Of a DNA stretch of 36,558 nt, positions 274-17,910 are shown one piece after another. Within the stretch, counting starts at the first letter, position 1. Each line of letters begins with the position of its first letter. Both the position numbers and the translations under genes were made by a program. Source of the stretch: a virus (Duplodnaviria; Heunggongvirae; Uroviricota; Caudoviricetes); the IMG/VR virus record IMGVR_UViG_2778261416_000006, positions 1 to 36,558 of that record. One strand, written 5' to 3'. The notes beneath the pieces were generated by a model that was given only the letters and a program-made list of their open reading frames with translations, was not told the origin of the DNA and searched no databases.

Positions 274-1112
274 CTGAAAGGCCCCTTCACGGTCAATGTG
301 TGGATCATTAGCATTGGCCCTGCGACTACTGATTTTAACATCTAGGGAAACGTAGCTGATGTTTGGCTTCGATAAGATTCTGTAGCACCGCCTCAGTGGG
401 GTTGTCAGAACATTCCGCTGCCGCCTTAAGAATATCGCTTACTAGAGATGAAACTGGTTGATTGTAATCCCGGTCGACCGTTACTCTATGTTTATCCGGA
501 TAATTTTGGCGTACACATTAAGTGAAGAAAACTTCAAAGTGATTTGAAACAGATGTTGTATTCACTGGCTCATTTACATTAACTTGAGTGTTGTTCAGCA
601 CATGTTGAAACGCAGCTGTAAGGAAGATGATACAGCCAAGATGTATCCTTCATTATGGGGATTGGCGCGATGACCACCACGGCTTAGCCCGATTGATTAT
701 TTGGAAATTGATTAGAATGCATAATCTGGGCTGAGCTCACTTAAAGTCTCTAATGTTTGACTTGGAGATTTGGGGGGCAGTGGCTTTCAGTTTTGTTAAC
801 TCTAACATCTGGTTTACGTTCCTTTTGGAACAAGAAGCAGAGGTCTGCTAAGTAATGGTTGTACTGCTTGTGATAGGTATGACTGCATGTTCAGCGAGCA
901 AGAATGGCTTAAAAGTTCTGTTACTGAGCACCCCATGAAGTTAGAACGATGTCATAACGTGCACGTAACCGTTGAACTGTTCTCTTACAGATAATCTCTA
1001 CATAGCTATTATTGCTTAGGCGGTAGCTATGTAGATGGTTTTTGTAATATTATATTAAAAGTTCATACAGCGACTATAGCATCATTGCGAAAAATATCAG
1101 GAGGTGAGTTTA

Positions 1113-2567
1113 ATGTTACGAAAAAGCAAACTTACAGAGATATATAAAAGGTTTGGTTTTACTGAAGAAAATACAGGTAACGAAAGTATTGCTGTATATT
1201 CTATTAAAACAGGGCACTACCATAACGCGGACATACTTCCACTAAATAATGAGGTTAATGTAAATCAAACCTTTGAAGAATATAGGCAGTTAGGTTATGC
1301 ATGTCAAATTAAAAAATATCAGTCTTATGAAGAAGCACATAAGGAATTATTTAATGGCTTCTTTAGCGTCGATTCAACTAAAGAAAGGTTGATTAAAGAT
1401 TATAATACTTTCACAGATTCAATTGTAAAAATTCACTCACCTACTGCAACTTATTCCTACATAAATTCAAAATATTACTTAAATGGTGTTATTGGCGAAG
1501 CTAATGTTGTTACGGAAATATTAGAGAGAATACAACATAGGCGTCCAATTCTGTTTTTGATTGAGGCTGCAGCCGGTTTTGGAAAGACTTGCACGGCGTA
1601 TGAATTATTGAGGGAGATTATAGTTAACAATATAGGGAAAATACCATTATTTTCAGAACTATCAAGGAATAGGCAAGCAAAAATATTCAGGTATGTACTA
1701 TTAGATGAAATTGATAGAAGTTTTCCTTTGTTAAGCTCAGCCTTAGTAAGGAATGAAATAAGAGCAGGAAATGTACCAGTTATACTTGACGGGTTTGATG
1801 AACTATTGCATGAAAGTACAAACGGAATTGAAAATAATTATGAAAAAACAGAGCCAATGCTGGAAATAATAAGTGAGCTTCTAACTGATAGTGCAAAAGT
1901 GGTTTTGACAACTCGAAGAACAGCTATATTTGACGGAGATGAATTCCATCAGTGGATAGCATCACATCAAGAAGATTTTGATGTGATAAGAATAAGAATT
2001 CATGAACCACAAATTGAAGACTGGCTTCCAGGTCAACGTTTAGATGAAATTTCATCGACAGGATTTCCTCTTAACAAATTATCAAACCCTGTACTGCTAT
2101 CATTTCTAAGATGCATCGACGACACCGACTTTAATAAAGTTATAAGCGACCCAACAACTATAGTGAGGAAGTATTTTGATTCAATGCTTGAGCGAGAAAG
2201 AAAAAGACAAGATTTATTAATGTCTATTGAAGATCAATATACTATACTAAAAATAATAGCTGACGACATGGTCGAGGGTAACTACACATCTGAGTCTAGA
2301 GAGTATATATCGTTAGTCATAACTGAAAAGAATCAACAACTCTTGGAGGCTACAAGAAAGCTTTATACTGTAGATGAAAGACCAACTACTGACGAATTAG
2401 TTAATAAATTAGCATCGCATGCTCTATTAGATCGGTCAGGCTCAGAAAACCAAGGTATTGGATTTGTTAATGAATTTGTTCTTGGTAATTTTGTTTCTGA
2501 AAATATTATTAATGATAAGTCAAATGAATGGATTGGTGATAAACGTTTTATAGAACCAGCAGTGTAA
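1113..2567 (+). CDS. NACHT-type STAND P-loop NTPase
   Basis: Walker A-like AAAGFGKT, Walker B VPVILDGFDELL (hhhhDGxDE) about 70 aa later, then VVLTTRR matching the NACHT hhhT[ST]R motif. AGGAGG at 1098-1103 precedes ATG 1113; track start 1104 is a GTG. AT-rich codon usage. Confidence 0.65.
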   Translation: MLRKSKLTEIYKRFGFTEENTGNESIAVYSIKTGHYHNADILPLNNEVNVNQTFEEYRQLGYACQIKKYQSYEEAHKELFNGFFSVDSTKERLIKDYNTFTDSIVKIHSPTATYSYINSKYYLNGVIGEANVVTEILERIQHRRPILFLIEAAAGFGKTCTAYELLREIIVNNIGKIPLFSELSRNRQAKIFRYVLLDEIDRSFPLLSSALVRNEIRAGNVPVILDGFDELLHESTNGIENNYEKTEPMLEIISELLTDSAKVVLTTRRTAIFDGDEFHQWIASHQEDFDVIRIRIHEPQIEDWLPGQRLDEISSTGFPLNKLSNPVLLSFLRCIDDTDFNKVISDPTTIVRKYFDSMLERERKRQDLLMSIEDQYTILKIIADDMVEGNYTSESREYISLVITEKNQQLLEATRKLYTVDERPTTDELVNKLASHALLDRSGSENQGIGFVNEFVLGNFVSENIINDKSNEWIGDKRFIEPAV

Positions 2568-2573
2568 TCTTAT

Positions 2574-3218
2574 ATGCCGAGGATCGATGATGAAAAAGAA
2601 TTACTTTGGCATAGCTTAGAGTTTGCTTTATATTTTATGTCAGGTAATGATAAAATCCTTTATAGTCATTTGCTTATAGGAAAAGTTCCATTAGATTTAA
2701 AAAATGATAGTGTTGAGCAATTGTCTATATCAAAACTTTCTTTAGGCGATATAAATATAATACATGATACTATCTTTGTTGATTGTTCGTTTTTTAGCAG
2801 CATATTTACCTGTGGTAATTATAAAAACGTTACATTCGTGAACTGTTCTTTTATAGATTGTAGTTTTAACGAATTAAGTGGTAGGGAAGATATTTATTTT
2901 TTGGGATGTGAATGTGACAATGATGCTATTAATAAAAAATCTGTCGAGATAAACAGTGAAAATGATCACGATATTACAGATTGTGATATTTACATCTTAG
3001 AGAAGTTCTGTCCCAGAGGGAGTGTTAGCTATCATAAGCATCGGCCTATAAAAGGCTTATGTTCTAACAACAATCAATTTCAGTTAAGTGAAATACTCCA
3101 TTCTTTAGATAAATTGAGGAAAGACGGTCTTTTACTTACGCCAGACAAGCGTTCGTTCCTTGAACTTAACATGGCAAGAATATCAGAGATTAAAGCAATT
3201 CTTGGGAGGAATTTCTGA
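2574..3218 (+). CDS. pentapeptide-repeat-like protein
   Basis: Seven consecutive 5-residue units with an aromatic at the same position (FVDCS FFSSI FTCGN YKNVT FVNCS FIDCS FNELS). Starts 7 nt after upstream stop; its stop overlaps the next start (TGATG at 3216-3220). Confidence 0.55.
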   Translation: MPRIDDEKELLWHSLEFALYFMSGNDKILYSHLLIGKVPLDLKNDSVEQLSISKLSLGDINIIHDTIFVDCSFFSSIFTCGNYKNVTFVNCSFIDCSFNELSGREDIYFLGCECDNDAINKKSVEINSENDHDITDCDIYILEKFCPRGSVSYHKHRPIKGLCSNNNQFQLSEILHSLDKLRKDGLLLTPDKRSFLELNMARISEIKAILGRNF

Positions 3219-4123
3219 TGTATAACGGGAATGAATTGCGAATTATTCAAAGTTTGCAAAAAGATATAGAAGATGAACTTAATCGTATTGGATTACTTTA
3301 TCGTTTTTTTTCGAGGACAAAATCAGAAAGCTCAATAATTAAGAAATATGAAAAAGAGCCTAATAAATACTCAGAGGATGGTAAAAAAATTCAAGACTTA
3401 TTTGGGGTTAGGATAATATTATATTTTCCTGATGATTTATTTATTGCTCAAAAAACACTGGAGAAATTATTCGAAATTGAATCTAAAACCGTAGACGAAA
3501 CCACGGCTAATCTCTTTGCGGCAACTCGATGCAATTACGTCTTTAAGTTACCAGAAGTATTATCAAATGATAGTGTCTTATTAAAGAAATATTCTTATAT
3601 TGATACTACTTTTGAAGTCCAATTTAGAACTATTTTATCTGAAGGATGGCATGAAGTTGAGCATGATCTACGCTATAAGTGCAAAGAGGATTGGGTTGAG
3701 CATAATGACCTTAGTCGCGCGCTGAATGGAATTTACGCCTCTTTGGAAACATCTGATTGGGGAATAATGAAGTTATTTGAGGATTTAGCATATAGAAATT
3801 ATAAGTCAAGCGCATGGTCCGCTATGCTAAGAAATAAATTAAGATTGAGAATGGACGATAAGCTTGATGAAAAGATAATTTCAATAATTAATGAGAAAGA
3901 GCTTGGTAAAAAGTTTTATAGAATTGACAGAGATCGTTTGTTATCGTTAATGTTAGATTATAATATTGATATACCAATTAATCTTAATAATATAATTTAC
4001 CTTTGTAATTATTTTTTCATAAAATCTACGGAGCTTCAGGATATAGCCCCTGCTTTAATAATGAAAAAGCTTACAGATGCTGATGAAAAATTCAATAAAA
4101 ATACTATTTTAGCATCTAAATAA
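3218..4123 (+). CDS. RelA/SpoT-like nucleotidyltransferase (synthetase fold), possible toxSAS-type effector
   Basis: N-terminal motifs typical of RelA/SpoT synthetase domain: SRTKSESSIIKKYEK (RxKxxxSxxxK), DLFGVRIILYFPDD (DxxGxRii), EVQFRTILSEGWHEVEHDLRYK (ExQxRT...W...H...YK). C-terminal 130 aa unassigned. Translationally coupled to upstream gene. Confidence 0.65.
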   Translation: MYNGNELRIIQSLQKDIEDELNRIGLLYRFFSRTKSESSIIKKYEKEPNKYSEDGKKIQDLFGVRIILYFPDDLFIAQKTLEKLFEIESKTVDETTANLFAATRCNYVFKLPEVLSNDSVLLKKYSYIDTTFEVQFRTILSEGWHEVEHDLRYKCKEDWVEHNDLSRALNGIYASLETSDWGIMKLFEDLAYRNYKSSAWSAMLRNKLRLRMDDKLDEKIISIINEKELGKKFYRIDRDRLLSLMLDYNIDIPINLNNIIYLCNYFFIKSTELQDIAPALIMKKLTDADEKFNKNTILASK

Positions 4124-4140
4124 TAACTATCTCCGGCTAT

Positions 4141-4170
4141 TAAGTAGGCCTTGTATTTTAGGCCTACTTA
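4141..4170. terminator. perfect 10-bp inverted repeat (taagtaggcc / ggcctactta) with 10-nt loop, putative operon terminator
   Basis: Read directly; lies 18 nt after the stop of the RelA/SpoT-like gene. No clean T-tract follows, so it could be a protein-binding palindrome instead. Confidence 0.35.
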
Positions 4171-5175
4171 AAAAGTTTCATTATGTGAAGTGATGATGAT
4201 AGCAAATCTGATATCTTTATGGTTGGATGCGAGAAAATATTTTTATCCCGACACAACAACTGGTAATGATAGAAAATTTAAACCCAAAAATGCTACAGTA
4301 GCCTCAGCTCACAAACGGAGTATAAAGTGGCGGTTACTCTTTAGTGGGAATACTGTAGATAGTTGATAAACTGGGCTGGATTTTCTTTTCTAACCGAAGG
4401 GAAGAAAAGCAAGGGGAACCCAAAGAAACAAGCGCAGCGGCTTCGTAGGGTTAGCCCTTGCTTCTTTTATAATTGGCATTATTCATTCAAGAACAATAGG
4501 ATCTTCGCTTGTACAAGCGAAGCTATAATAAAAAATCAATTAATTATTTTAAAAGTATTAAGCAAGAGCCTATTGACATTCGTAAAATAAAAGTTATTTT
4601 TAATGTATGCCATAAATAAAAAGTTTTATGTCATATGTATCCTGCACTATGTGCAGTTAATGTGCCACTTGTCCCATATATGGGAATATTGGAAAGGTTA
4701 CTTTGTTTTGAAGTAGCCTTTCGTCCTTCAATATTCACGATTACTTATTGCTATTACCAAGTCCAGTCGAATCGAAGAACATCTTTTATCTGAAACGACT
4801 CCTAATACCAGGTTGAAGCCACAATATCTCTCGCATAAGTAGACCAAAGAAAAATTATGATATTAACTATGTGATTTTTTTTAGTGTTAAGTTGAATAAT
4901 TATATACTGGAGAGTTTTCTGTACACTACCAATTGCTGGTTCATCTGTTCTGCCGCTGATGTTTCTGACTAATCTCCCGGTGACACAGAACTGTCCCTCT
5001 CTACCAGCCTTTATTCGACTCAATGTCCGGCTGCTGATACGCAGTTATCCCTTCGTATCAATGACTGACTCTTAAACGCAATGCTTTGGTTGCTGGCGTA
5101 TCTGACAGCTTCTTCGGCGTGAAGGTCGTTGTGTAAGTATACTTCTTGGTTTATTTAGGCTATATAAAACCATGA

Positions 5176-6072
5176 CTATGACTGGCTGTTTTCAGTAAGA
5201 GTCTTATCATCCAAAGAATTTATTCTAGAAATTCTTTTTAACTCATTAAGATAATCAACCTCGTTTTCTAAGAACCAATGAAGAACTTTAGAGTTGCCAA
5301 GTAATTTATTAATATATGACTGGATTATAACGAATTTCAACATATCTGAACCATACTCGGTTTGAAGTTTTTTCGTTTCTTCCGAAGTTGTTGCCATTTC
5401 TTGTTCCAGACGAAGTATGGTTTTTTTTATGTCCTTTTTATAGGGAGTGTTTTTCCCTTTATTTACTATCATCGATGACGGTGTTGCATCCAAGATGCTC
5501 ATTGCAAATTTTTTACTATAATTATCAAAATTAATCATTGTACCGACTGCTTCAATTTGACGAATTGGCTTCATTTTCCTCAAAACGTCAAATGTAGCCT
5601 TAGGTATAGGTTTATCAGAAAGTTTCGCAATTACACTTGGATCTATGCCGTTCATCACATTAGCTTTATCTTTTATGGCATCAACAGATATGCCCAAAGC
5701 AGCACTAAGTTTTTCAATTGATACTTTTGCCAGAGACTTAATTATCATTCTATGTTCTTCAACTACATTTATATGATTCACTTGTTTGTTAGGAGTGAAA
5801 GCATCATCTATGCTCGAAAGTATACATGGAGCTTTTTCTATATCTAAGTCTTTTAAAGCCTCAACCCTTAAATGGCCATCAAGTATCTTAGTGACATCTT
5901 TATCTTTGTCATAGAATACTATTATTGGTTCAATAATACCCAAGCTTTCGATAGAGGTAACTATTTGATGATATTTATGGCTTCGCTTTACGTTTTCTAA
6001 TAATTCCTTAGATGGAATTAACTTATTAGTTTCCAGGTAAATAAAATTTTTGCCAAAACGTATCTGAATCAT
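5176..6072 (-). CDS. ParB/sulfiredoxin-fold protein
   Basis: N-terminal ParB-like region with ILDGHLRVEAL (GxxRxxA-type box). ATG at 6072-6070; 4-nt overlap with upstream gene. AT-rich. Confidence 0.55.
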   Translation of the reverse strand: MIQIRFGKNFIYLETNKLIPSKELLENVKRSHKYHQIVTSIESLGIIEPIIVFYDKDKDVTKILDGHLRVEALKDLDIEKAPCILSSIDDAFTPNKQVNHINVVEEHRMIIKSLAKVSIEKLSAALGISVDAIKDKANVMNGIDPSVIAKLSDKPIPKATFDVLRKMKPIRQIEAVGTMINFDNYSKKFAMSILDATPSSMIVNKGKNTPYKKDIKKTILRLEQEMATTSEETKKLQTEYGSDMLKFVIIQSYINKLLGNSKVLHWFLENEVDYLNELKRISRINSLDDKTLTENSQS

Positions 6073-6965
6073 TTTGATACCTCTTTGTTTACTGGGTTTA
6101 ATATCTGAGATGGTAGTTCTGAAAGATTCTCTTGTTCAAGTATATTTTGAAAGCTTTTATTCATCATTATGATGTTAAAAATCTCATTTATTATTAGTAG
6201 ATTGGTTTTTATAAATTTCGAGTTGTTATAAACAGATTTATGTTCAGCGATACTATTTTCATAAAGCTCAATCAACTCCTCTGCAGTCATCCTTTTTGAT
6301 GGTTTGTGATAATAAAATCCGGCTGCTTTTGCACCTTTATTCCCAACTGTTCTTTGATTTAGAATGTATTTTATCTTTATAATGTCCCGACTTTTTATTA
6401 ATTTTTTATCATATGCTTCGGTAAGAATATCTTGTGCTTCCTCAGTTTCACATCTTGCAAATTGCACTGCGAGATACAGAGGCAAATTACCCCGTTCGAC
6501 TGCTGAGAGAAGTTTATGCTCTCCCTTATCAAGAAGCATATTAATACTGCTCACCCAGTTCGATGAATATCCAGTAATCTCACTTATTTCGGAGTCTGAA
6601 AGTCCTCTGATTTTCATGTCTTTAATCACCTGTAATAACTCATTAGAACGTGGTCTTCTCCTTGCAATGTTTTCAACTAAACTCATAACGTAAGCATCTT
6701 CTTCTGATACATCTCTTATAATTGCTGGAATAATAGTTTCACCTAATGCAACAAGAGCCTCTATTCTCCCTTGACCACAAATTAAAGCATATTTGAAATC
6801 GTCTTCATCAATAGCTCTTACGCTTATAGGCTTGCTTAATCCTCTTTTTTTTATGCTTTCCTTTATTTCTTCATGCACTACCTTATTTCTTGTTCGTGGG
6901 TTAAGAAATTTTATTTTTGCAATCTCAATTTGAATTATTGGGAATTCATTTTTTTCAGGCAGCAT
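6069..6965 (-). CDS. ParB-like protein with HTH
   Basis: ParB box-like CGQGRIEAL and LVENIARRRPR, followed by helix-turn-helix-like GLSDSEISEITGYSSNWVSSI. ATG at 6965-6963; overlaps recombinase gene end. Confidence 0.6.
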   Translation of the reverse strand: MLPEKNEFPIIQIEIAKIKFLNPRTRNKVVHEEIKESIKKRGLSKPISVRAIDEDDFKYALICGQGRIEALVALGETIIPAIIRDVSEEDAYVMSLVENIARRRPRSNELLQVIKDMKIRGLSDSEISEITGYSSNWVSSINMLLDKGEHKLLSAVERGNLPLYLAVQFARCETEEAQDILTEAYDKKLIKSRDIIKIKYILNQRTVGNKGAKAAGFYYHKPSKRMTAEELIELYENSIAEHKSVYNNSKFIKTNLLIINEIFNIIMMNKSFQNILEQENLSELPSQILNPVNKEVSK

Positions 6966-8511
6966 ATAGTTCCCTCACTTTCATGCGAGTAATAATTTGT
7001 AGAAATTTATCAAGATTATCAAATCTATAGAGATCTAACCGAATGTTGTTTGTTTCCATCATACACATTTTACTATATTCGTTTTCAATCTTTGGTATGA
7101 TATAAAAATCAAGAGGTGAAATATTTTGTGAATTCATTCGTATAACAATTGTTATGTCTGCTTTCTGTGAGTTATCAAACCGGACTTTCCATCTAAGTTT
7201 ACCTGATTTCATATGTATGCATTTAGTAACAAGGACGGAAATTAAAAACTCATCATTGATGTAAAGCATTGGGTAATATTTATACTCGTCTATATGACAG
7301 TTACTTTTTAATATTTCGCCCTTAAAATCCTCAATTATCTCTGAGTAAAATGATCTTAGTGCTTCATTTATTTGGAGATAGCTGTAATCATGTTCTGGCT
7401 TATAACCAATCAAAGTATATGCTCTTAAAAGACCACCAAATCGGGTTCTATAAACAGAAGATGAAGGGCCTGTATCATCTTCATCAATGATAAAGCCTGA
7501 TAGTTTTCCATTAGATTCTAATTTTTCTTTTAGCTTTTCTAATAGATCTTCATTAGTCAAATGAATGGATCGGAGCTGAATTATTTCTTGAGCTTTATTA
7601 TATTTTTTCTTTGAAATAATTGGTTTATATGCCTTGTCACATCTAATCCATTCATGTTTGGGGTTTTTTACAAGCTTACTTTTTAGTTTAGATGAGGTTT
7701 TGTTATATATGTTGTTTCCAATATATTTTTCATTTGTCAAAATTTGATGTATTTTTGCACGAGTCCATGATGTTCCATTTTCTGCAGGTATGCTCTGTTC
7801 ATTTAATCTCTCAGCAATAATGAATTCTGGGACGTTACTATCTATAAAGAGATCATAGATTCTATTTACAATTTTTATTTCATTTTTTGGTCCCGGAATT
7901 AATATTACCCTATCTGTTTGAATACTCTTTCTTTTGCGGAAATTCAATATTTCTTTAGCTATGCCATTTTCGTCTACTAAAAGACGTCTCAGCCCATAAC
8001 CAGCCATACCGCCTTGATGATAACCAAGCTTTATTAAATTTACTTGCCCTATAAATACCTTTTCAGATAGATTCCTGCTGTGATATGCAGCACTTGATCT
8101 TTTTATATTCAGTATAACAGAGGACTCTAAAGGGAAATCTTTAGTGGGTATAGGTTCGGAACAATATATAAGATCTACACCATTTCTTTCAAATAGAAAG
8201 GAATAATATGCAGCTTCATCACTATTTTGAAAACGACCAAAACGGCTCACATCATAAAATAATACAGCCTGTATATCTATTTTCTTTTGTTCTACATCGC
8301 TAAGTAACTGCTGCAAAGAATGCCTGCCTACGATACTGACTCCGCTCTTACCTGCATCATCGTAGGTATAAGCGATTTCCATATTGTTCTTTTCAGCATA
8401 ATCTTTGATATATTCAGACTGATTATGTAAAGAATATTGCTGATGGTCGGTAGACATCCTCAAGTACTGTGCGACCCTAACTCTATGATTTTTTTCATTT
8501 CCGCTAGCCAT
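6955..8511 (-). CDS. large serine recombinase
   Basis: N-terminal resolvase/invertase catalytic motifs: VAQYLRMSTDHQ (catalytic Ser), YDDAGKSG, LFYDVSRFGR. Length 518 aa fits the large serine recombinase class. Track start 8517 is TTG; ATG at 8511 is preceded by GAGG. Confidence 0.75.
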   Translation of the reverse strand: MASGNEKNHRVRVAQYLRMSTDHQQYSLHNQSEYIKDYAEKNNMEIAYTYDDAGKSGVSIVGRHSLQQLLSDVEQKKIDIQAVLFYDVSRFGRFQNSDEAAYYSFLFERNGVDLIYCSEPIPTKDFPLESSVILNIKRSSAAYHSRNLSEKVFIGQVNLIKLGYHQGGMAGYGLRRLLVDENGIAKEILNFRKRKSIQTDRVILIPGPKNEIKIVNRIYDLFIDSNVPEFIIAERLNEQSIPAENGTSWTRAKIHQILTNEKYIGNNIYNKTSSKLKSKLVKNPKHEWIRCDKAYKPIISKKKYNKAQEIIQLRSIHLTNEDLLEKLKEKLESNGKLSGFIIDEDDTGPSSSVYRTRFGGLLRAYTLIGYKPEHDYSYLQINEALRSFYSEIIEDFKGEILKSNCHIDEYKYYPMLYINDEFLISVLVTKCIHMKSGKLRWKVRFDNSQKADITIVIRMNSQNISPLDFYIIPKIENEYSKMCMMETNNIRLDLYRFDNLDKFLQIITRMKVRELYAA

Positions 8512-8793
8512 GCACAAAACCTCATGGATGATTCAATACAATGTAGAGGATAAAATTGATCAAATTTTAACCGAATTCAACTGTTTTATCATTGATTAGA
8601 GCGAATTTGGTAGTTCTTCGAGGTGTATGATAATCGAGAAGAGATGTGAATTATTTAGCTGATATGACCGACAGCTTTCGTTATGTGGCCTCAAGGTACC
8701 CATTTGTAAATGGCTATGCTTAGTCCACATAGGTTAATGGTGTGATCATTAATTCTTCAAATAAATCAAGATAGTTAACCCATCATGGAAGAG

Positions 8794-10023
8794 TTATGCG
8801 GCAATAACTTTGTATTTTTGAGACGAAACATAGTCACTCCACCATTGCATGAGAACCACACGTTCTGTGAGATACTCTGCACGATTGTAGGCTGCAATTA
8901 TTTCATCTTTTTTCGAGTGGGCAAGGGCGGCTTCTAAGACATCAGTTCTAAACTTGCCACACTCCTCAGCCGCCGTTCTAGCGATTGATCGCATACCATG
9001 AGCTACAAGCTCACCTCCGAAGCCCATACGGATTATAGCCGCATTAGCTGTTTGTTCATGCATGTGATTGAGTGGAGCTTTGATACTGGGAAAAACCCAC
9101 TCTCTATGCCCGCTGATGGCTTTCATTGAATCCAAGACTCGCAAAGATTCTTTGCTCAGTGGAACTTTGTGAGGCTTCTTCATTTTCATAAACTCCGCCG
9201 GGATGTTCCACATGCTGGTTTCTATATCAATATCTGACCATCTTGTGCGAACAGCTTCACCAGGGCGAACCCATGTGAGAAGTTGCCACTCAATCAGTAG
9301 CCTTGTTTCTAAACGGATAGAAGCATTGTTTAGAGCAACCAGGAAGCGGGGGAGTTCGGAAGGGGGTAATGCTGGCATATTCTGTTTTTTTGGCTTGCTG
9401 AACCGTTGCCCCAGGTTGTCAGCCGGATTGAATTCTATGAGTTCTTCTGTTGCTGCATAGCGGAAAATTTCATTCAGGCGGGATATGACGCGGCGAAGTG
9501 TTTCAAGGACACCTCGTTTTTCTATGGGGTCTAAATGCTGTTTAAGCATTTTAGGGCGAATCTCCTTAATGGGGGTATCACCCAACGTTGGAAAGATATT
9601 TCTCTCTAGGCTTCGCCAGATGTCGTTAGCATGATCCTGGGAGATGCCTGACGTTTTGACTTTCTCATCAAGCCACTTCTTGGCTACTGCTTGAAATGTA
9701 TGTTCCGTTGCATCCTTAAGGGCATTGGCTTTGTGGGTGTTATGAACTTGTGGGTCTATACCATTTGCAAGCAACGACAAGTACTCATCACGTAAAGCTC
9801 GTGCCTTCGCAAGTGTAAGGTGAGGATAGGTTCCTAAGCTCACCTTAGTTCGCTTTTTGGTCACAGGCACTGCATATCTGAAATACCAATTTTTCTTTCC
9901 TCCCTTCGCTAAGGGGGCGATTCGCAGGAGCAAACCATCGCCGTCAAAAAGGTTAACCTCTTTCTCGGCAGGTTTGGTGCTTTTGATTTCAGTGTCAGTG
10001 AGCTTCTTAGCGATTTTTGCCAT
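8794..10023 (-). CDS. P4-type tyrosine integrase (IntA/CP4-57-like)
   Basis: N-terminus MAKIAKKLTDTEIK and overall pattern resemble E. coli IntA as I recall it. C-terminal HGMRSIARTAA (HxxR) and AYNRAEYLTERVVLMQWW. Start placed at ATG 10023 rather than track start 10167. Confidence 0.8.
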   Translation of the reverse strand: MAKIAKKLTDTEIKSTKPAEKEVNLFDGDGLLLRIAPLAKGGKKNWYFRYAVPVTKKRTKVSLGTYPHLTLAKARALRDEYLSLLANGIDPQVHNTHKANALKDATEHTFQAVAKKWLDEKVKTSGISQDHANDIWRSLERNIFPTLGDTPIKEIRPKMLKQHLDPIEKRGVLETLRRVISRLNEIFRYAATEELIEFNPADNLGQRFSKPKKQNMPALPPSELPRFLVALNNASIRLETRLLIEWQLLTWVRPGEAVRTRWSDIDIETSMWNIPAEFMKMKKPHKVPLSKESLRVLDSMKAISGHREWVFPSIKAPLNHMHEQTANAAIIRMGFGGELVAHGMRSIARTAAEECGKFRTDVLEAALAHSKKDEIIAAYNRAEYLTERVVLMQWWSDYVSSQKYKVIAA

Positions 10024-10189
10024 GTTTGGGACCCTCATGTTTTGGACCCTTTGTGTTGGGTCCCAAAAAGGGTGCCATAACGAGTAGATTCTAGCAATTC
10101 TCGGTAGACTACTATAGACGTAAAAAAGCCCGCAAGGCTGGTTCCATGCGGGCTTGATAGACTTCACTGAACTTCAATATATCAAAAAT

Positions 10190-10218
10190 TGGTGGAGCTG
10201 GCGGGAGTTGAACCCGCG
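10190..10218 (-). repeat. ssrA: 29-nt copy of the 3' end of the tmRNA gene ssrA (attachment-site core)
   Basis: Minus strand reads CGCGGGTTCAACTCCCGCCAGCTCCACCA, matching the T-arm, 3' acceptor strand and CCA end of E. coli ssrA as recalled. Sequence beyond (10219 onward) is not ssrA. Lies about 165 bp from the integrase start. Confidence 0.7.
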
Positions 10219-10289
10219 TTCTTTTTACTTTATCTTTATGTTTTATAAGAGTTTTACAGGGCGCTGATACGATGCGTAGCTTTAACGGA

Positions 10290-11060
10290 TCTTTATTGCA
10301 GGATATATCCTAAAATGACTAGGCTGTGTCCCTTAATTACGTAACCGTTGATAAAAGAATCGGATGCAGCCAGTTTTAGCATCGCCAGATAATTTCTCGC
10401 CGTTTTGTCGTAACGCATAGCAATGCGGCGGTATTCTTTCAGGCGACCAAAACACCGTTCAACGACGTTGTGATTGCGATACGCATCACGATCAATCCGT
10501 GCACGTCCATCTGATGCCATTTTTTTCATTTGAGTTTCGGGGGATGATTGCCTTTATGCCTTTATTTTTCAGCTCGTTACGCGAACTAGCTTTCATGAGA
10601 CTGCCCGGGGCTTAGTACGATATTTAACGGGAGGCCGCTTCCGTCTGTTGCCAGATGGATTTTGGTGCCCAAACCGCCTCGAGAGCGACCCTGCCCATTA
10701 TCTCCGTCGATATTGGGATGTTTTTTTGAGCCCCGTCGGCGCATTTAAACGCCCGGATATTACTACCATTCAGCGCTGTGGCAGACCAGTCAACAAAGCT
10801 GTTCGCATCAAGTAGTGAAAGCAATCTGTTGAAAATGATGTTAATTACGCCTGACTTTGACCAACTGTTAAAGCGGTTATAAACGGTTTACCATGGCCCA
10901 TATCGTTCGGGTAAATCGCGCCATGGTGTGCCGGAACACAACACCAGAACATGCCATTGATGATTTTACGATGCTCTGCCCATGAGATACCTGCCCGTCG
11001 TGTGACAGGTTCTGGGGCAACAAGGGGGTGATGATGGTCTATACTTCATCGGGGAGGTCG
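10290..11060 (-). mobile_element. degraded IS5-family (IS427-like) transposase remnant
   Basis: Minus-strand translations give GRSRGGLGTKIHLATDGSGLPLNIVLSPGQSHES and DRDAYRNHNVVERCFGRLKEYRRIAMRYDKTARNYLAMLKLAA, typical of IS5-family DDE transposases, but split over several frames with in-frame stops. Boundaries approximate. Confidence 0.6.
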
Positions 11061-11324
11061 TAGCGAGCCATGATTCAATATGTTGTGGAAACAGGCCGTT
11101 ACTATAGATCAAGCTATTACGGGACACAGCCTTAAGTTATTTTATCGATTGACGATATATTTTAAAGAGAATGGTGATTTTATTATCAATAAAAACAATA
11201 AATTAAACGTTACTGCTTTTTTAACGGTTAAGCAACATCTCTTGAAAAATAAGTTTATAGTCATTATTATACGCCAACTTAGCTGGCCCTTGGATGGGTT
11301 ATTCTGCAAAATTAGAAGAATAAG

Positions 11325-11894
11325 ATGAACCAGTGCACACAGTGGTTGGGGTATCATGGCACCAGTGTTTTATGTGCTAATTCAATCATTAATACAAATT
11401 TTAATGTCAGTAGACAAGAAAATGATTGGCTTGGTACCGGAGCCTATTTTTTCATTGAGTCGCCGGGATTGTTGGCCCCAGAAGAAAAAGCGGCTCAATG
11501 GGCTAACATTAGGGCTAGTAATGCGAGACCTAACTATACTAATCTAGCAGTGTTAGAAGCTACCATTGAAGTTGAGCAGTATCTTGACTTAGACAATGAT
11601 GAGCACATAGCCGCTCTCAACAAAGTGAGAGAGGTTTACATGGAAATCATGAAGTCTGAGGGTAAGAAACCAACTGGTAACAGATTGTTTGACAAATGCT
11701 GTTTTTGTAACTATGTAATGCATGAGCATGGTATTGACGCCCTGATACGTAAAGAGTATATCAAAACTACAAGAGAGGAGCTTGATTATGGTTTTGAAGG
11801 GGGAGTTCCTAACTGCAGAGTCTTATGCGTTAAAGACCCTAAAGCGAGTGTTAAGTCCATACGATTCGCGGTCGAGAGAAGGAGAGTACGATGA
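11325..11894 (+). CDS. putative ADP-ribosyltransferase-fold (H-Y-E class, PARP/DarT-like) toxin candidate
   Basis: YHGTSVLCANSIINTNF followed by WLGTGAYFF resembles the HG[ST]...GxGxYF signature of H-Y-E ADP-ribosyltransferases; assignment by eye only. AT-rich; stop overlaps next start (ATGA). Confidence 0.45.
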   Translation: MNQCTQWLGYHGTSVLCANSIINTNFNVSRQENDWLGTGAYFFIESPGLLAPEEKAAQWANIRASNARPNYTNLAVLEATIEVEQYLDLDNDEHIAALNKVREVYMEIMKSEGKKPTGNRLFDKCCFCNYVMHEHGIDALIRKEYIKTTREELDYGFEGGVPNCRVLCVKDPKASVKSIRFAVERRRVR

Positions 11895-12649: not shown

Positions 12650-12674
12650 ATGAGAGCAAATAAATTGCTCTCAT
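12650..12674. terminator. bidirectional hairpin terminator between convergent genes
   Basis: 9-bp stem atgagagca / tgctctcat with 7-nt loop, flanked by A-run upstream and T-rich downstream; overlaps integrase stop codon. Confidence 0.5.
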
Positions 12675-13840
12675 TTATACATGATATCATTTATGGTATT
12701 TTCGTTATCGTACTCTTTTAAATATCTTCCATAATGCCTAAATAGCATTTCTGGTCCTTTATGTCCCATTTGTCCAGCAAGCCAAAATAGGTTCGCCCCT
12801 TGACTGATATGGCGAGTAGCGAATGTGTGTCTCGTTTGATATGGATTACGGTATCTGATTCCTGCTTTTCTCAATATTGGCACCCATGCTTTTTTCCTAA
12901 TTGCATCAGCACTTGCCCAGGGTTTATTGGTCTTTGGATCTTCAAAGACAGTAGCATTCTTTATGAATGTAAATGGCTTCTGGTTTATCAACGCCAACAT
13001 TGCTTCTTCAGTCAGTTCAACTTTACGGGTACCGGCTTTTGTCTTTGTTCCTTTGATAACTCCGACAACACTTGCGCTCTGAACATGGGCTGTTTTTCCA
13101 ACAAAGTCGATATCATGCCATCGTAGGGCACATAATTCAGAACTACGCAGGCCTGTATGTATGGCGAACCGGAACAGATTTTCCCATTGTTTGTTTCCGG
13201 CTGCTGCTAGTAATGCATCAACTTCTGCTGGTGATAGCGGATCAACTAAGTAGCTGCTTTCTGCTTCTGACTTATCACTTTGGTAGCGCGAAGCTGTTAC
13301 TAACGATACGGGGTTAATTTGAAGTACCCCATCGGTCACGGCTTCATCAAGTGCTGACCGCAGGAAAGATAACTGGTTGCGAATGGTTTTTAAGGTCGTT
13401 TTCTGGCTTTGAATCCACGCTTTCAGGGTTGCTGGTGTTAATTCACTTGCAGGGCAAATGTGAAGTGAGGCTAACGCACTACGGCATTTTTTATAACCAC
13501 CGATCGTGGATGGTGAAAGTTTCCTCGTTTCGCAGATTTCAAGATATTCGTCTAGGTACATTTTTACCGTTTTGCCAGCGGCAGCATTACCAAAAATTTT
13601 CAAACGAGCAGAACGGGGAAAATATTCTGCATAAATGAATGTTCCCCTTTCGATCTTATTATGGATTTCGCCGAGTGTACGCTCGGCGTATTTAATGTTC
13701 TTTGGTGTTACTTCCAGATTGGAAAGCGGCTCACGACATCTAACTCCTTTGTAGGTGAAAGTTATATTGATCGTTTCTCCTTGGCGGTGTTTCCTGATTG
13801 TTACGCCGCGCGGTAGTTTGAGCAGTTTTGTCTGGCCCAT
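12671..13840 (-). CDS. lambda-type tyrosine integrase
   Basis: C-terminal catalytic region RHTFATRHISQG (HxxR) and MLFRHYGRYL (Tyr); N-terminal arm-binding-like region. ATG at 13840. Confidence 0.85.
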   Translation of the reverse strand: MGQTKLLKLPRGVTIRKHRQGETINITFTYKGVRCREPLSNLEVTPKNIKYAERTLGEIHNKIERGTFIYAEYFPRSARLKIFGNAAAGKTVKMYLDEYLEICETRKLSPSTIGGYKKCRSALASLHICPASELTPATLKAWIQSQKTTLKTIRNQLSFLRSALDEAVTDGVLQINPVSLVTASRYQSDKSEAESSYLVDPLSPAEVDALLAAAGNKQWENLFRFAIHTGLRSSELCALRWHDIDFVGKTAHVQSASVVGVIKGTKTKAGTRKVELTEEAMLALINQKPFTFIKNATVFEDPKTNKPWASADAIRKKAWVPILRKAGIRYRNPYQTRHTFATRHISQGANLFWLAGQMGHKGPEMLFRHYGRYLKEYDNENTINDIMYK

Positions 13841-17235: not shown

Positions 17236-17910
17236 TTAGGCCTTTATTTTGTATCTTCTTGGTTTTCCTGAGAAAATTACTGTACCAATTATAGAGCAAT
17301 TACCGTTGATCTTAATGTAAGGTTCAGGCCAGTTTGGGTTTAATGCTTTGAGGTAACGCTGTGTTCCATCTTCTATCAACCGCTTAAAGGTGGTTTCGCC
17401 TGTATCGTGCATCAATGCAATAACGTCGTCACCGTGGCAGGCAGGGACTTCAGGATCTACAAAAATCATGTCTCCCGGGCGGTACTCATCAATCATTGAA
17501 TCACCAATCACCCGCAAGATATAAGTCATTTCGCCACAGGGTACAGGGCAGGGATAAGTTTCTGCTGTGCTCAAATCAACCTCAGAATAGCCAACTTCTT
17601 TCCATGCTCCGGCCTGTACCCATGATATGACAGGGACTAACGTTATTTGTTTGTTAGTGATTGAAACATCAGGTTTTTTTGTGATGTTCGTGGTCTGGTG
17701 TTCTTGATCAAGCCATCCGACAGGCAGGTCGAAACATTTTTCAATGTGCCTTGCCATGCTGTCACCGATATTTTTAGTAGCACCATCTCCCATAAACCTG
17801 CTGGTCTGGGTTGGCTCGCGATCAATCATGGTGGCAAAGGAAGAATTCCCGCCAACACCATCTCTCAGTTTTCTGGCGTTAGACCGCCGGATGTCATGGA
17901 CTGTTTTCAT
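17236..17910 (-). CDS. CI-like phage repressor (HTH plus S24 LexA-type peptidase domain)
   Basis: C-terminal VIGDSM (catalytic Ser) and TFKRL (Lys) motifs; N-terminal DNA-binding region; divergent from the Cro-like gene. Confidence 0.8.
   Translation of the reverse strand: MKTVHDIRRSNARKLRDGVGGNSSFATMIDREPTQTSRFMGDGATKNIGDSMARHIEKCFDLPVGWLDQEHQTTNITKKPDVSITNKQITLVPVISWVQAGAWKEVGYSEVDLSTAETYPCPVPCGEMTYILRVIGDSMIDEYRPGDMIFVDPEVPACHGDDVIALMHDTGETTFKRLIEDGTQRYLKALNPNWPEPYIKINGNCSIIGTVIFSGKPRRYKIKA

Follow-up and report, generated by a model that had tools for sequence, protein, structure and literature searches.

A 36,558-nucleotide stretch of viral DNA assigned to the Caudoviricetes (IMG/VR record IMGVR_UViG_2778261416_000006, positions 1 to 36,558; called the window below) carries three overlapping minus-strand genes for a large serine recombinase (LSR) and two ParB-like proteins, which we named ParB-A and ParB-B. 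This trio of genes was widespread, kept its gene order across diverged bacterial lineages, and was under purifying selection. The comparisons presented here suggested, in part by inference, that the trio is one self-regulated operon and a discrete, horizontally exchanged cassette of about 3.4 to 3.9 kb. We tentatively favored the idea that it is a recombinase cassette that would move itself between host elements with the assistance of its ParB-like proteins.

The recombinase and its two ParB-like partners

The open reading frame (ORF) listing of the window placed three minus-strand ORFs (5176 to 6072, 6069 to 6965, and 6955 to 8517) in one operon with the gene order LSR, ParB-A, and ParB-B. 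The LSR gene overlapped the ParB-A gene by 11 nucleotides (nt), and the ParB-A gene overlapped the ParB-B gene by 4 nt. The LSR consisted of 520 amino acids (aa) when read from the TTG codon at 8517 or 518 aa when read from the ATG codon at 8511, which is the start used in RefSeq (6955 to 8511). ParB-A (6069 to 6965) and ParB-B (5176 to 6072) each consisted of 298 aa. A previous description of the window, which we refer to as the sequence-only reading, had reported three overlapping minus-strand genes for a 518-aa serine recombinase and two 298-aa ParB-fold proteins. The gene layout was reproduced here, and the protein assignments were backed by Pfam matches to the Resolvase, Recombinase, and ParB_N/RepB profiles, with the ParB_N match of ParB-B falling below threshold.

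In the case of the LSR, matches to Resolvase (PF00239; 78.4 bits, residues 16 to 154) and Recombinase (PF07508; 78.4 bits, residues 212 to 314) were obtained. The catalytic motifs YxRxS..Q and DVSRxGR were kept across 88 LSR homologues, and residues Y16, R18, S20, Q24, D87, R90, and R93 were invariant in 41 diverse homologues; judging by these motifs, the enzyme is predicted to be catalytically intact. The best PHROG was the integrase family phrog_95 (234.6 bits), and weak matches to CcrB/CcrC, to solved LSR N-domains, and to the SprA recombinase domain were also observed. All of the LSR scores against NCBIfam equivalogs were far under the cutoffs, and no trio protein was placed in any equivalog. 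A second search for LSR homologues yielded only sequences that were 95 to 100% identical.

The C-terminal part of the LSR (residues 315 to 518) was strongly conserved, and its motifs were likewise kept in the 88 homologues; W441, R458, D468, P473, and N488 were invariant, and the region had no match to a known family. In LSRs, a zinc-ribbon/coiled-coil domain normally recognizes the att sites and controls synapsis. The model for this domain (PF13408) had no match in the trio LSR at an E value of ≤0.01, and it did match another LSR located in a neighboring locus. In addition, no conserved cysteine pairs were found in the C-terminal half of the LSR homologues, in which a single cysteine was nearly invariant. 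A structure model of the LSR that was generated from the single sequence had a pLDDT of 31 and was discarded.

ParB-A matched ParB_N (PF02195) with 50.9 bits (cutoff, 26.3) and RepB with 31.2 bits (cutoff, 30), and it scored 61.7 bits, over the cutoff, against TIGR00180, the NCBIfam model of a generic ParB/RepB/Spo0J domain. ParB-B matched RepB (PF07506) with 85.8 bits and ParB_N with 24.2 bits, which was just below the cutoff of 26.3. The two proteins had the same length and domain order and were 30% identical over 63 aa (E = 0.003); they are paralogous, as stated in the sequence-only reading, and the relationship is remote. The sequence-only reading had also assigned a helix-turn-helix (HTH) to one of the proteins. 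The HTH was present, but the claim understated the findings, as both ParB-like proteins aligned through the HTH region of solved ParB/Noc structures. Specifically, the alignments of ParB-A with Spo0J (1vz0), Noc, and KorB spanned the N-domain and the HTH. ParB-B had a profile match to Noc (7ol9).

ParB-A is predicted to contain a ParB N-terminal nucleoside triphosphate (NTP)-binding domain, an HTH, and a RepB-type C-terminal part, and its boxes NPR, GQGR (which replaced GERR), and ENxxRR were kept in 99 homologues. ParB-B combined a degenerate, ParB/Srx-like N-domain, which kept the S-x-KY-x-QI and DGHLR motifs, with a strong RepB-type HTH/C-terminal domain. The position of the canonical GERRxR box for cytidine triphosphate (CTP) binding was occupied by a conserved GQGR in ParB-A and by GHLR in ParB-B. 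ParB-B also weakly matched a SerK kinase model and ParB-methyltransferase models.

Partition, which was one of the roles proposed in the sequence-only reading, found no support. No ORF for a ParA/RepA Walker ATPase was located beside the trio in the window, and ParA/CbiA-type families were absent from the 25 most common Pfam families in either flank (116 upstream and 128 downstream neighbors). Because no ParA was found, because the window contained only one palindrome as a candidate binding site, and because the score against the repABC RepB equivalog (TIGR03454) was 37 bits versus a cutoff of 201.5, we rejected classical partition as unlikely.

Distribution and conservation of the trio

The cassette was found in 657 of 5426 complete Escherichia coli genomes (~12%), including BL21, other B strains, and ML35, and it was always chromosomal. 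The three ORFs were intact in 619 of the 657 carriers at a coverage of ≥80%. The window is E. coli DNA, and its positions 5000 to 8700 matched many complete chromosomes of this species at 100% identity. Apparent second copies in Sinorhizobium were dismissed as frameshifted ParB-B remnants.

A profile search for ParB-B homologues, which was restricted to one genome per species, identified 80 loci outside the E. coli set. The LSR, ParB-A, and ParB-B genes were present in the same order and on the same strand in 74 of these loci; five of the remaining six were cut by contig ends, and one (L034) contained ParB-B alone. The loci came from Enterobacterales, Alpha- and Betaproteobacteria, Nevskia, and a metagenome-assembled genome of the Thermoanaerobaculia, and the genes typically overlapped by 1 to 11 nt. 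The order was also the same in IMG/VR loci wherever the contig permitted (70 IMG/VR contigs carried the trio), and the trio was found on 103 plasmids, such as Agrobacterium pAtC58 and a Piscinibacter plasmid. An exhaustive search placed the relatives of ParB-B (E ≤ 1e-30) in 107 clusters at 50% identity.

The ratio of nonsynonymous to synonymous substitution rates (dN/dS) was 0.12 to 0.25 for the LSR. Relative to diverged alleles, it was 0.12 to 0.17 for the LSR, about 0.05 to 0.07 for ParB-A, and 0.06 to 0.09 for ParB-B. This range of 0.05 to 0.17 over the three genes was similar to that of the neighboring integrase. All three genes were under purifying selection, and the prevalence, the kept gene order, and the low dN/dS far outweighed chance as an explanation for the conserved trio. 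We take all three proteins to be functional and to work jointly, probably in a complex.

The trio lies in a sharply bounded block

In pairwise DNA comparisons, the homologous block corresponded approximately to the operon alone and had sharp ends and unrelated flanks. For instance, Scandinavium and Erwinia loci (L015 and L020) were 97% identical over 3.56 kb, from ~227 bp upstream of the LSR gene to ~25 to 50 bp past the ParB-B gene. Two other pairs were each 91% identical (L042 and L045, with a block that extended from -79 to +5, and L031 and L037). In all of the E. coli-type alleles, the right end of the block was a conserved 51-bp tail located 3' of the ParB-B stop codon (5125 to 5175, minus strand). 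Subtypes diverged directly beyond this tail, and the homology breakpoints in loci L003, L011, and L012 were located at window positions 5125/5128.

In about 20 Rhodobacteraceae loci, the right end was always a GC-rich hairpin ~235 bp past the ParB-B gene. In L079 (~11050 to 11094) and at the corresponding positions of about 10 Rhodobacteraceae loci, a perfect hairpin with a 13-bp stem, GGGCGTGTCGGAG...CTCCGGCACGCCC, was located at the exact block end. This hairpin may serve as a terminator or in recombination. The ~235-bp tail of these loci also contained a short, conserved ORF on the antisense strand.

A 3.9-kb block in Agrobacterium, which consisted of a divergent small gene and the trio, was 96.9% identical in pAtC58 and pAt1D1460, in which it occupied differing contexts. 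The block was bracketed by direct copies of the 27-bp motif CCTTGAnnGGnATCGAACCnTnGnCC, and the sister plasmid pAtCFBP5877 contained VapBC in the equivalent slot, between two copies of the motif. Copies of CCTTGAnnGGnATCGAACCnTnGnCC were located at 4047 to 4073 and 7929 to 7955 in L004, at 5004 to 5030 and 8886 to 8912 in L164, and at 7053 to 7079 and 7942 to 7968 in L165. The motif marked the junctions of AbiE, VapBC, Fic/SoFic, and trio cassettes on Agrobacterium and Rhizobium plasmids, and it could be a cassette-exchange or att-like site. Its reverse complement resembled the T-arm and acceptor of a tRNA, and no tRNA gene was found nearby.

A relic of the C terminus of a P4-type integrase (approximately residues 314 to 409, 62 to 71% identity) was detected 30 to 50 bp past the ParB-B gene in four E. 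coli-type loci: L003 (11715 to 11996), L011 (10947 to 11231), L012 (4337 to 4624), and L090 (7991 to 8200). Weaker relics were detected in L037 and L038. Because the relic lies past ParB-B, the trio is situated between two diverged copies of the integrase 3' end in direct orientation. This arrangement fits both a Campbell-type insertion of a circle that carried the integrase 3' end and a tandem arrangement of islands that was followed by a deletion. In the four loci with the clearer relic, the variable cargo began directly after it.

A palindrome upstream of the LSR gene

The 16-bp palindrome AAATTTGATCAATTTT was located at 8552 to 8567, ~50 bp upstream of the LSR start, and this was the only exact copy in the window. 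It lay in a 282-bp spacer between the stop codon of the upstream integrase and the LSR start (8512 to 8793, minus strand), which also contained a promoter-like site. The palindrome overlapped the -10 hexamer of a weak σ70-like match (-35 at 8592 to 8587 and -10 at 8569 to 8564, minus strand) that scored 9/12. Because such matches were not more common here than in shuffled sequence, we consider the promoter assignment only suggestive.

The same palindrome was found at the same distance in lineages in which the LSR was just 46 to 47% identical (L022, L038, L039, L042, L045, and L116), and other lineages had palindromes of their own at -30 to -60 relative to the LSR gene. ParB and KorB are known to bind palindromic operator or loading sites. 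By analogy, we infer that the palindrome may be an operator or a ParB loading site that is bound by the HTH of one or both of the ParB-like proteins. The 282-bp spacing between the integrase and LSR genes was also found in Enterobacter, Kluyvera, Leclercia, and Phytobacter loci.

The trio in E. coli ssrA islands

A P4-type tyrosine integrase of 409 aa (8794 to 10023, minus strand) was located 282 bp upstream of the LSR gene in the same orientation. It scored 444.6 bits against NF007246. A 457-aa ORF with a GTG start (8794 to 10167) was an overextended version of this gene, as the RefSeq annotation of identical strains gives 409 aa. Because this integrase adjoins the trio, the island carries both a tyrosine integrase and a serine recombinase, in agreement with the sequence-only reading; a second tyrosine integrase (12671 to 13840) belonged to a neighboring prophage.

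In E. coli ML35, BL21, SH19PTE6, and other strains, the order was ssrA (tmRNA), integrase, trio, and variable genes, and a relaxase/mobilization gene and ypjA followed in fuller islands. This order indicated that the trio rides a mobilizable island associated with ssrA, at the tmRNA hotspot. The tmRNA hotspot in E. coli has been described previously (PMC10121019). Rfam was empty over 3900 to 11500, and no tRNA or tmRNA/ssrA was found in the window; therefore, the island and a prophage appeared to lie in tandem, an arrangement that was also seen in strain 300709. K-12 has the island CP4-57 at ssrA, which is not known to carry such a trio.

The left side of the trio consisted of about 740 to 790 bp without an intact gene (4383 to 5124), which included an IS3-family transposase remnant in some annotations. 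Most E. coli carriers had inherited this stretch along with the integrase and the trio, and the variable cargo lay beyond it. Most of the 613 matching genomes shared only 4383 to 5170 of the left flank, and other genera shared sequence from 4370 to 4382 onward. The cargo of the window (NACHT and RelA/SpoT) was common to only 58 of the 613 genomes, which placed the trio in the conserved, integrase-proximal part of the E. coli island. Other cargo next to the trio included TIGR04141 and HxsABCD (CH468) and patatin with a DEAD helicase (GIMC1405), and BL21 had an IS1-associated deletion beyond the trio. In the search for empty sites in E. coli, the Hxs/TIGR04141 cargo was never seen without the trio.

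The cargo in the window (1104 to 4123, plus strand) consisted of a 487-aa ORF, a 214-aa ORF with a weak pentapeptide-repeat match, and a gene for a 301-aa RelA/SpoT-domain protein (3218 to 4123), and the gene starts abutted or overlapped. The annotation of strain 300709 joins the 487-aa and 214-aa ORFs into a single NACHT-domain protein. This cargo looks like a candidate defense pair that consists of a NACHT protein and a small-alarmone-synthetase-like protein. In the sister ssrA island of E. coli CB209, Gabija (an ATP-dependent nuclease and a UvrD-like helicase; L089, 4972 to 8885) was found at the trio position, after an integrase that was 91% identical. To the right of the island integrase, the window contained insertion sequence (IS) transposase fragments (10293 to 10824) and then the prophage (12671 to 36151), which carried the tyrosine integrase noted above, a CI-like repressor (17236 to 17910), an O-like replication gene, an HNH endonuclease, and baseplate genes at 58% GC.

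Neighborhoods in other genomes

Across the loci, the hosts of the trio were islands, Tn7-like elements, prophages, and megaplasmids, in whose cargo slots it was often accompanied by SoFic, AbiE, and toxin-antitoxin genes. The upstream neighbors in the genome loci included co-oriented P4-type integrases (8 of 58), TniQ of Tn7-like elements (3 loci), ParE toxins (5 loci), and AbiE. The downstream neighbors were heterogeneous and included SoFic, GajB-like helicases, DUF6119, and transposases. Proviral contigs from Alphaproteobacteria had the trio between tail/lysis genes and SoFic, AbiE, or HipA genes. These neighborhoods indicated that the trio occupies cargo or defense-island positions.

A divergent small gene (130 to 240 aa) was located directly upstream of the LSR gene in 17 loci, most of which were alphaproteobacterial (for example, L004, 4083 to 4490, minus strand). 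Its product had no Pfam family, and in some cases it had a DeoR-type winged HTH. The gene, which was absent from the E. coli version of the cassette, may encode a fourth component or a regulator. Upstream of the trio, at a distance of one or two genes, a SoFic-type Fic gene recurred in a group of IMG/VR alphaproteobacterial proviruses (L141, L143, L145 to L147, L149, and L150), and SoFic also flanked the trio in Agrobacterium pAt plasmids. This recurrence stems either from shared lineage or from a link in function.

Among Paracoccus prophages, one study listed 11 similar serine recombinases that formed a cluster and for which att sites had not been identified (PMC6536676). These recombinases may correspond to the trio LSR. 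We rejected the idea that the LSR serves as the prophage integrase in alphaproteobacteria, as the trio was not terminal in the IMG/VR loci (a Fic gene lay beyond it) and was internal in several contigs.

Comparison with known systems

The trio LSR shared the resolvase and Recombinase domains with LSR integrases such as those of phiC31, Bxb1, and A118, SPbeta SprA, TnpX, and CcrB. It differed from them in having a different conserved domain at residues 315 to 518 instead of the zinc-ribbon/coiled-coil domain and in being cotranslated with two ParB-like proteins, rather than being paired with a separately regulated directionality factor. The nearest precedent for the pairing of an LSR with a ParB protein is the integration module of the Dehalococcoides ssrA islands, which contains a CcrB-like LSR (DsiB, ~540 aa), DsiA, a RecF-like protein, a ParBc protein, and Mom (PMC3146451). 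As in E. coli, an LSR and a ParB-domain protein are found in a mobilizable, ssrA-associated island with variable cargo adjoining them (PMC3146451). In contrast to the trio, which had two 298-aa ParB_N and RepB proteins, no small recombinase, and a differing gene content, the Dehalococcoides module comprises six genes, among them those for another, small serine recombinase and for a single 210-aa ParBc protein, and a tRNA-like locus is embedded in it (PMC3146451). Moreover, the Dehalococcoides LSR overlaps attL and is the island integrase, whereas in E. coli the trio is separated from ssrA by the tyrosine integrase of the island.

Relative to ParB/Spo0J, Noc, KorB, and VirB, ParB-A shared the N-domain, the HTH, and motifs resembling Boxes I, II, and III, and the palindrome at the putative trio promoter resembled parS or KorB operators. 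Unlike these members of the ParB-CTPase family, the trio proteins had GQGR (ParB-A) and GHLR (ParB-B), not GERR, at Box II, had no ParA or KorA partner, and always occurred as two paralogues that were coupled to a recombinase. The RepB-type C-terminal domain (PF07506) was shared with the RepB proteins of repABC systems, but the trio had no RepA or RepC genes. The RK2 parCBA-parDE locus, in which a serine recombinase is found with stability genes, was reminiscent of the trio and its ParE and VapBC neighbors; the RK2 ParA, however, belongs to the small resolvases, and the RK2 ParB is of the thermonuclease type and lacks the ParB/Srx fold. A ParB/Srx-type N-domain with a GxxR/DGHxR-like motif may also be shared with the defense and modification proteins GmrSD (DUF262), DndB, DpdB, and Osa, but no nuclease or modification partner was located beside the trio.

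Discussion

The reading that we tentatively favored, without granting it even probability, is that the trio is a ParB-assisted recombinase cassette that moves itself between host elements. We favored it because an LSR that appeared to be intact and to lack the att-recognition domain was always cotranslated with two putative DNA-binding proteins and because most known LSRs move DNA; to our knowledge, nearly every characterized LSR moves or excises DNA. Besides the genes for the LSR, ParB-A, and ParB-B, such a cassette would comprise a short tail and a promoter whose operator is palindromic, and it would ride in the cargo slot of other mobile elements, which in the window is directly behind the island tyrosine integrase. 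ParB-A, with its intact nucleotide-binding boxes, and ParB-B, with its degenerate N-domain and RepB-type dimerization domain, would form a hetero-complex that recognizes the upstream palindrome and sites like it and acts as an NTP-gated factor for DNA binding or bridging. This complex would supply site recognition and synapsis control in place of the zinc-ribbon/coiled-coil domain, and the LSR would cut and rejoin the DNA. The outcome would be the movement of the cassette between host elements as a small nested "hitcher." The binding of the palindrome by the ParB-like proteins, their complex with the LSR, and the role of the LSR as the mover of the block are all extrapolated from sequence features.

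Several observations weighed against self-movement. AbiE, SoFic/Fic, and VapBC cassettes, which have no recombinase, showed equally sharp ends and the same 27-bp motif. As these recombinase-less modules share them, sharp ends seem to be a general property of accessory regions and not proof that the trio LSR produced them. The integrase relic, in turn, could be explained by tandem islands and a deletion. A search for flanking direct repeats in 83 loci gave a top score of 14 versus a maximum of 13 for mismatched upstream and downstream pairs, in a scoring that diverged repeats would escape. No convincing terminal inverted half-sites were found at the block ends, and no att sites were identified. 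No contig of <9 kb had a terminal overlap, so that no circular form of the cassette was detected. Searches of E. coli did not yield an empty site lacking the trio, and the integrase-only matches in this species were IS1 deletions or other islands. The cassette was almost always present in single copy (659 places in 657 E. coli genomes), and the trio was stably coinherited with one integrase lineage in this species. Thus, the nested mobile element proposed in the sequence-only reading gained the sharp ~3.5-kb block in unrelated contexts and the duplicated integrase 3' end in its favor, but it found no support in empty sites, circles, or multicopy genomes. No att-like terminal repeats that could represent short att sites were found in the flanks, and genomes lacking the module provided no informative empty site in E. 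coli.

The positions that the trio occupies suggested a different role, namely, an antiphage or anti-mobile-element conflict system in which the ParB pair would sense or load onto invading or competing DNA and the LSR would break, invert, or mis-integrate it or switch a target. We considered this role a serious alternative, possible but somewhat doubtful. The trio was found in cargo slots, and in CB209 Gabija took its place behind the related integrase. It was accompanied by variable, defense-like cargo (NACHT and RelA/SpoT, TIGR04141 and Hxs, or patatin and a helicase), and its neighbors elsewhere included SoFic (8 of 51 upstream genes in proviral loci and 2 downstream genes in genome loci), AbiE, GajB-like proteins, ThsB, HipA, VapBC, and ParE. 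In alphaproteobacterial proviruses, the stretch between tail/lysis genes and SoFic/AbiE is the usual position of accessory genes. At least one defense-discovery pipeline discards candidates that contain recombinases (10.1101/2025.01.08.631966), so a defense system of this type could have been missed, and serine invertases were recently reported to be linked to phage resistance (PMC12529663). On the other hand, mobilome genes are also enriched in defense islands, and neighborhood evidence is therefore weak for a gene set that contains a recombinase. PADLOC-DB v2 yielded no families for the LSR and ParB-A, and the sole match of ParB-B, a weak one, was to the ParB portion of a Type II methyltransferase model (23.9 bits). 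Furthermore, the trio is the conserved, integrase-adjacent part of the E. coli island, and it is the genes beyond it that vary. E. coli B/BL21, a classical permissive host of T phages, carries the trio, and we know of no LSR-based defense system. The ParB-nuclease defense module that had been suggested in the sequence-only reading therefore retained its defense-island-like neighborhood, but it had no PADLOC match and no sign of nuclease activity. A more specific version, in which ParB-type nucleotide-gated clamps would recognize foreign or competing DNA and license the zinc-ribbon-less LSR to break or rearrange it as a novel defense or interelement conflict system, seemed unlikely to us.

A rather unlikely but still serious alternative is that the trio is a maintenance module of its host element, in which the LSR would resolve multimers or tandem arrays and the ParB-like proteins would bind a centromere-like or operator site and either keep the excised element or silence neighboring genes in the manner of KorB. 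The homology to ParB/RepB partition proteins, the presence of the trio on 103 plasmids, the adjoining toxin-antitoxin genes (with VapBC in the same slot of a sister plasmid), and a palindromic operator that resembles KorB/ParB operators are consistent with this role, as is the tandem arrangement of E. coli ssrA islands with prophages. In Enterobacterales, a co-oriented P4-type integrase was located 280 to 500 bp upstream in several diverged lineages (LSR, 47 to 51% identity; integrase, 33 to 37% identity), which looks like an old backbone pairing, and L036 had the order tRNA-Arg, integrase, and trio. However, the points that spoke against classical partition (no ParA-type ATPase family among the top neighbor families, one palindrome rather than a centromere array in the window, and the low RepB equivalog score) apply here as well. 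In addition, known multimer resolvases are small serine recombinases or tyrosine recombinases, not LSR-type enzymes, and the block moves independently of any single backbone. We considered it highly improbable that the trio is an inert leftover of a decayed element and serves no present function. Single copies, the disruption of some copies by IS elements, and the degraded fragments in Sinorhizobium pSymA could be read in this way, but the ORFs were intact in most carriers, the motifs were kept over deep divergence, and purifying selection contradicted it.

The trio proved to be conserved in an island family, a possibility raised in the sequence-only reading, but no function for it, and no description of an LSR paired with two ParB-like proteins, was found in the literature that we searched. 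ParB-fold proteins, as CTP-gated clamps, and LSRs, as genome-engineering integrases, are studied intensively, and yet their obligate and widely conserved pairing was not described there. If the ParB-like proteins do replace the zinc-ribbon/coiled-coil domain in site choice and directionality, then the trio would represent a new way to program a serine recombinase. It could also constitute a novel class of minimal mobile elements, which nest beside the integrases of other elements. If the trio instead functions in defense, it would be the first LSR-based immune system and would have a new effector logic.

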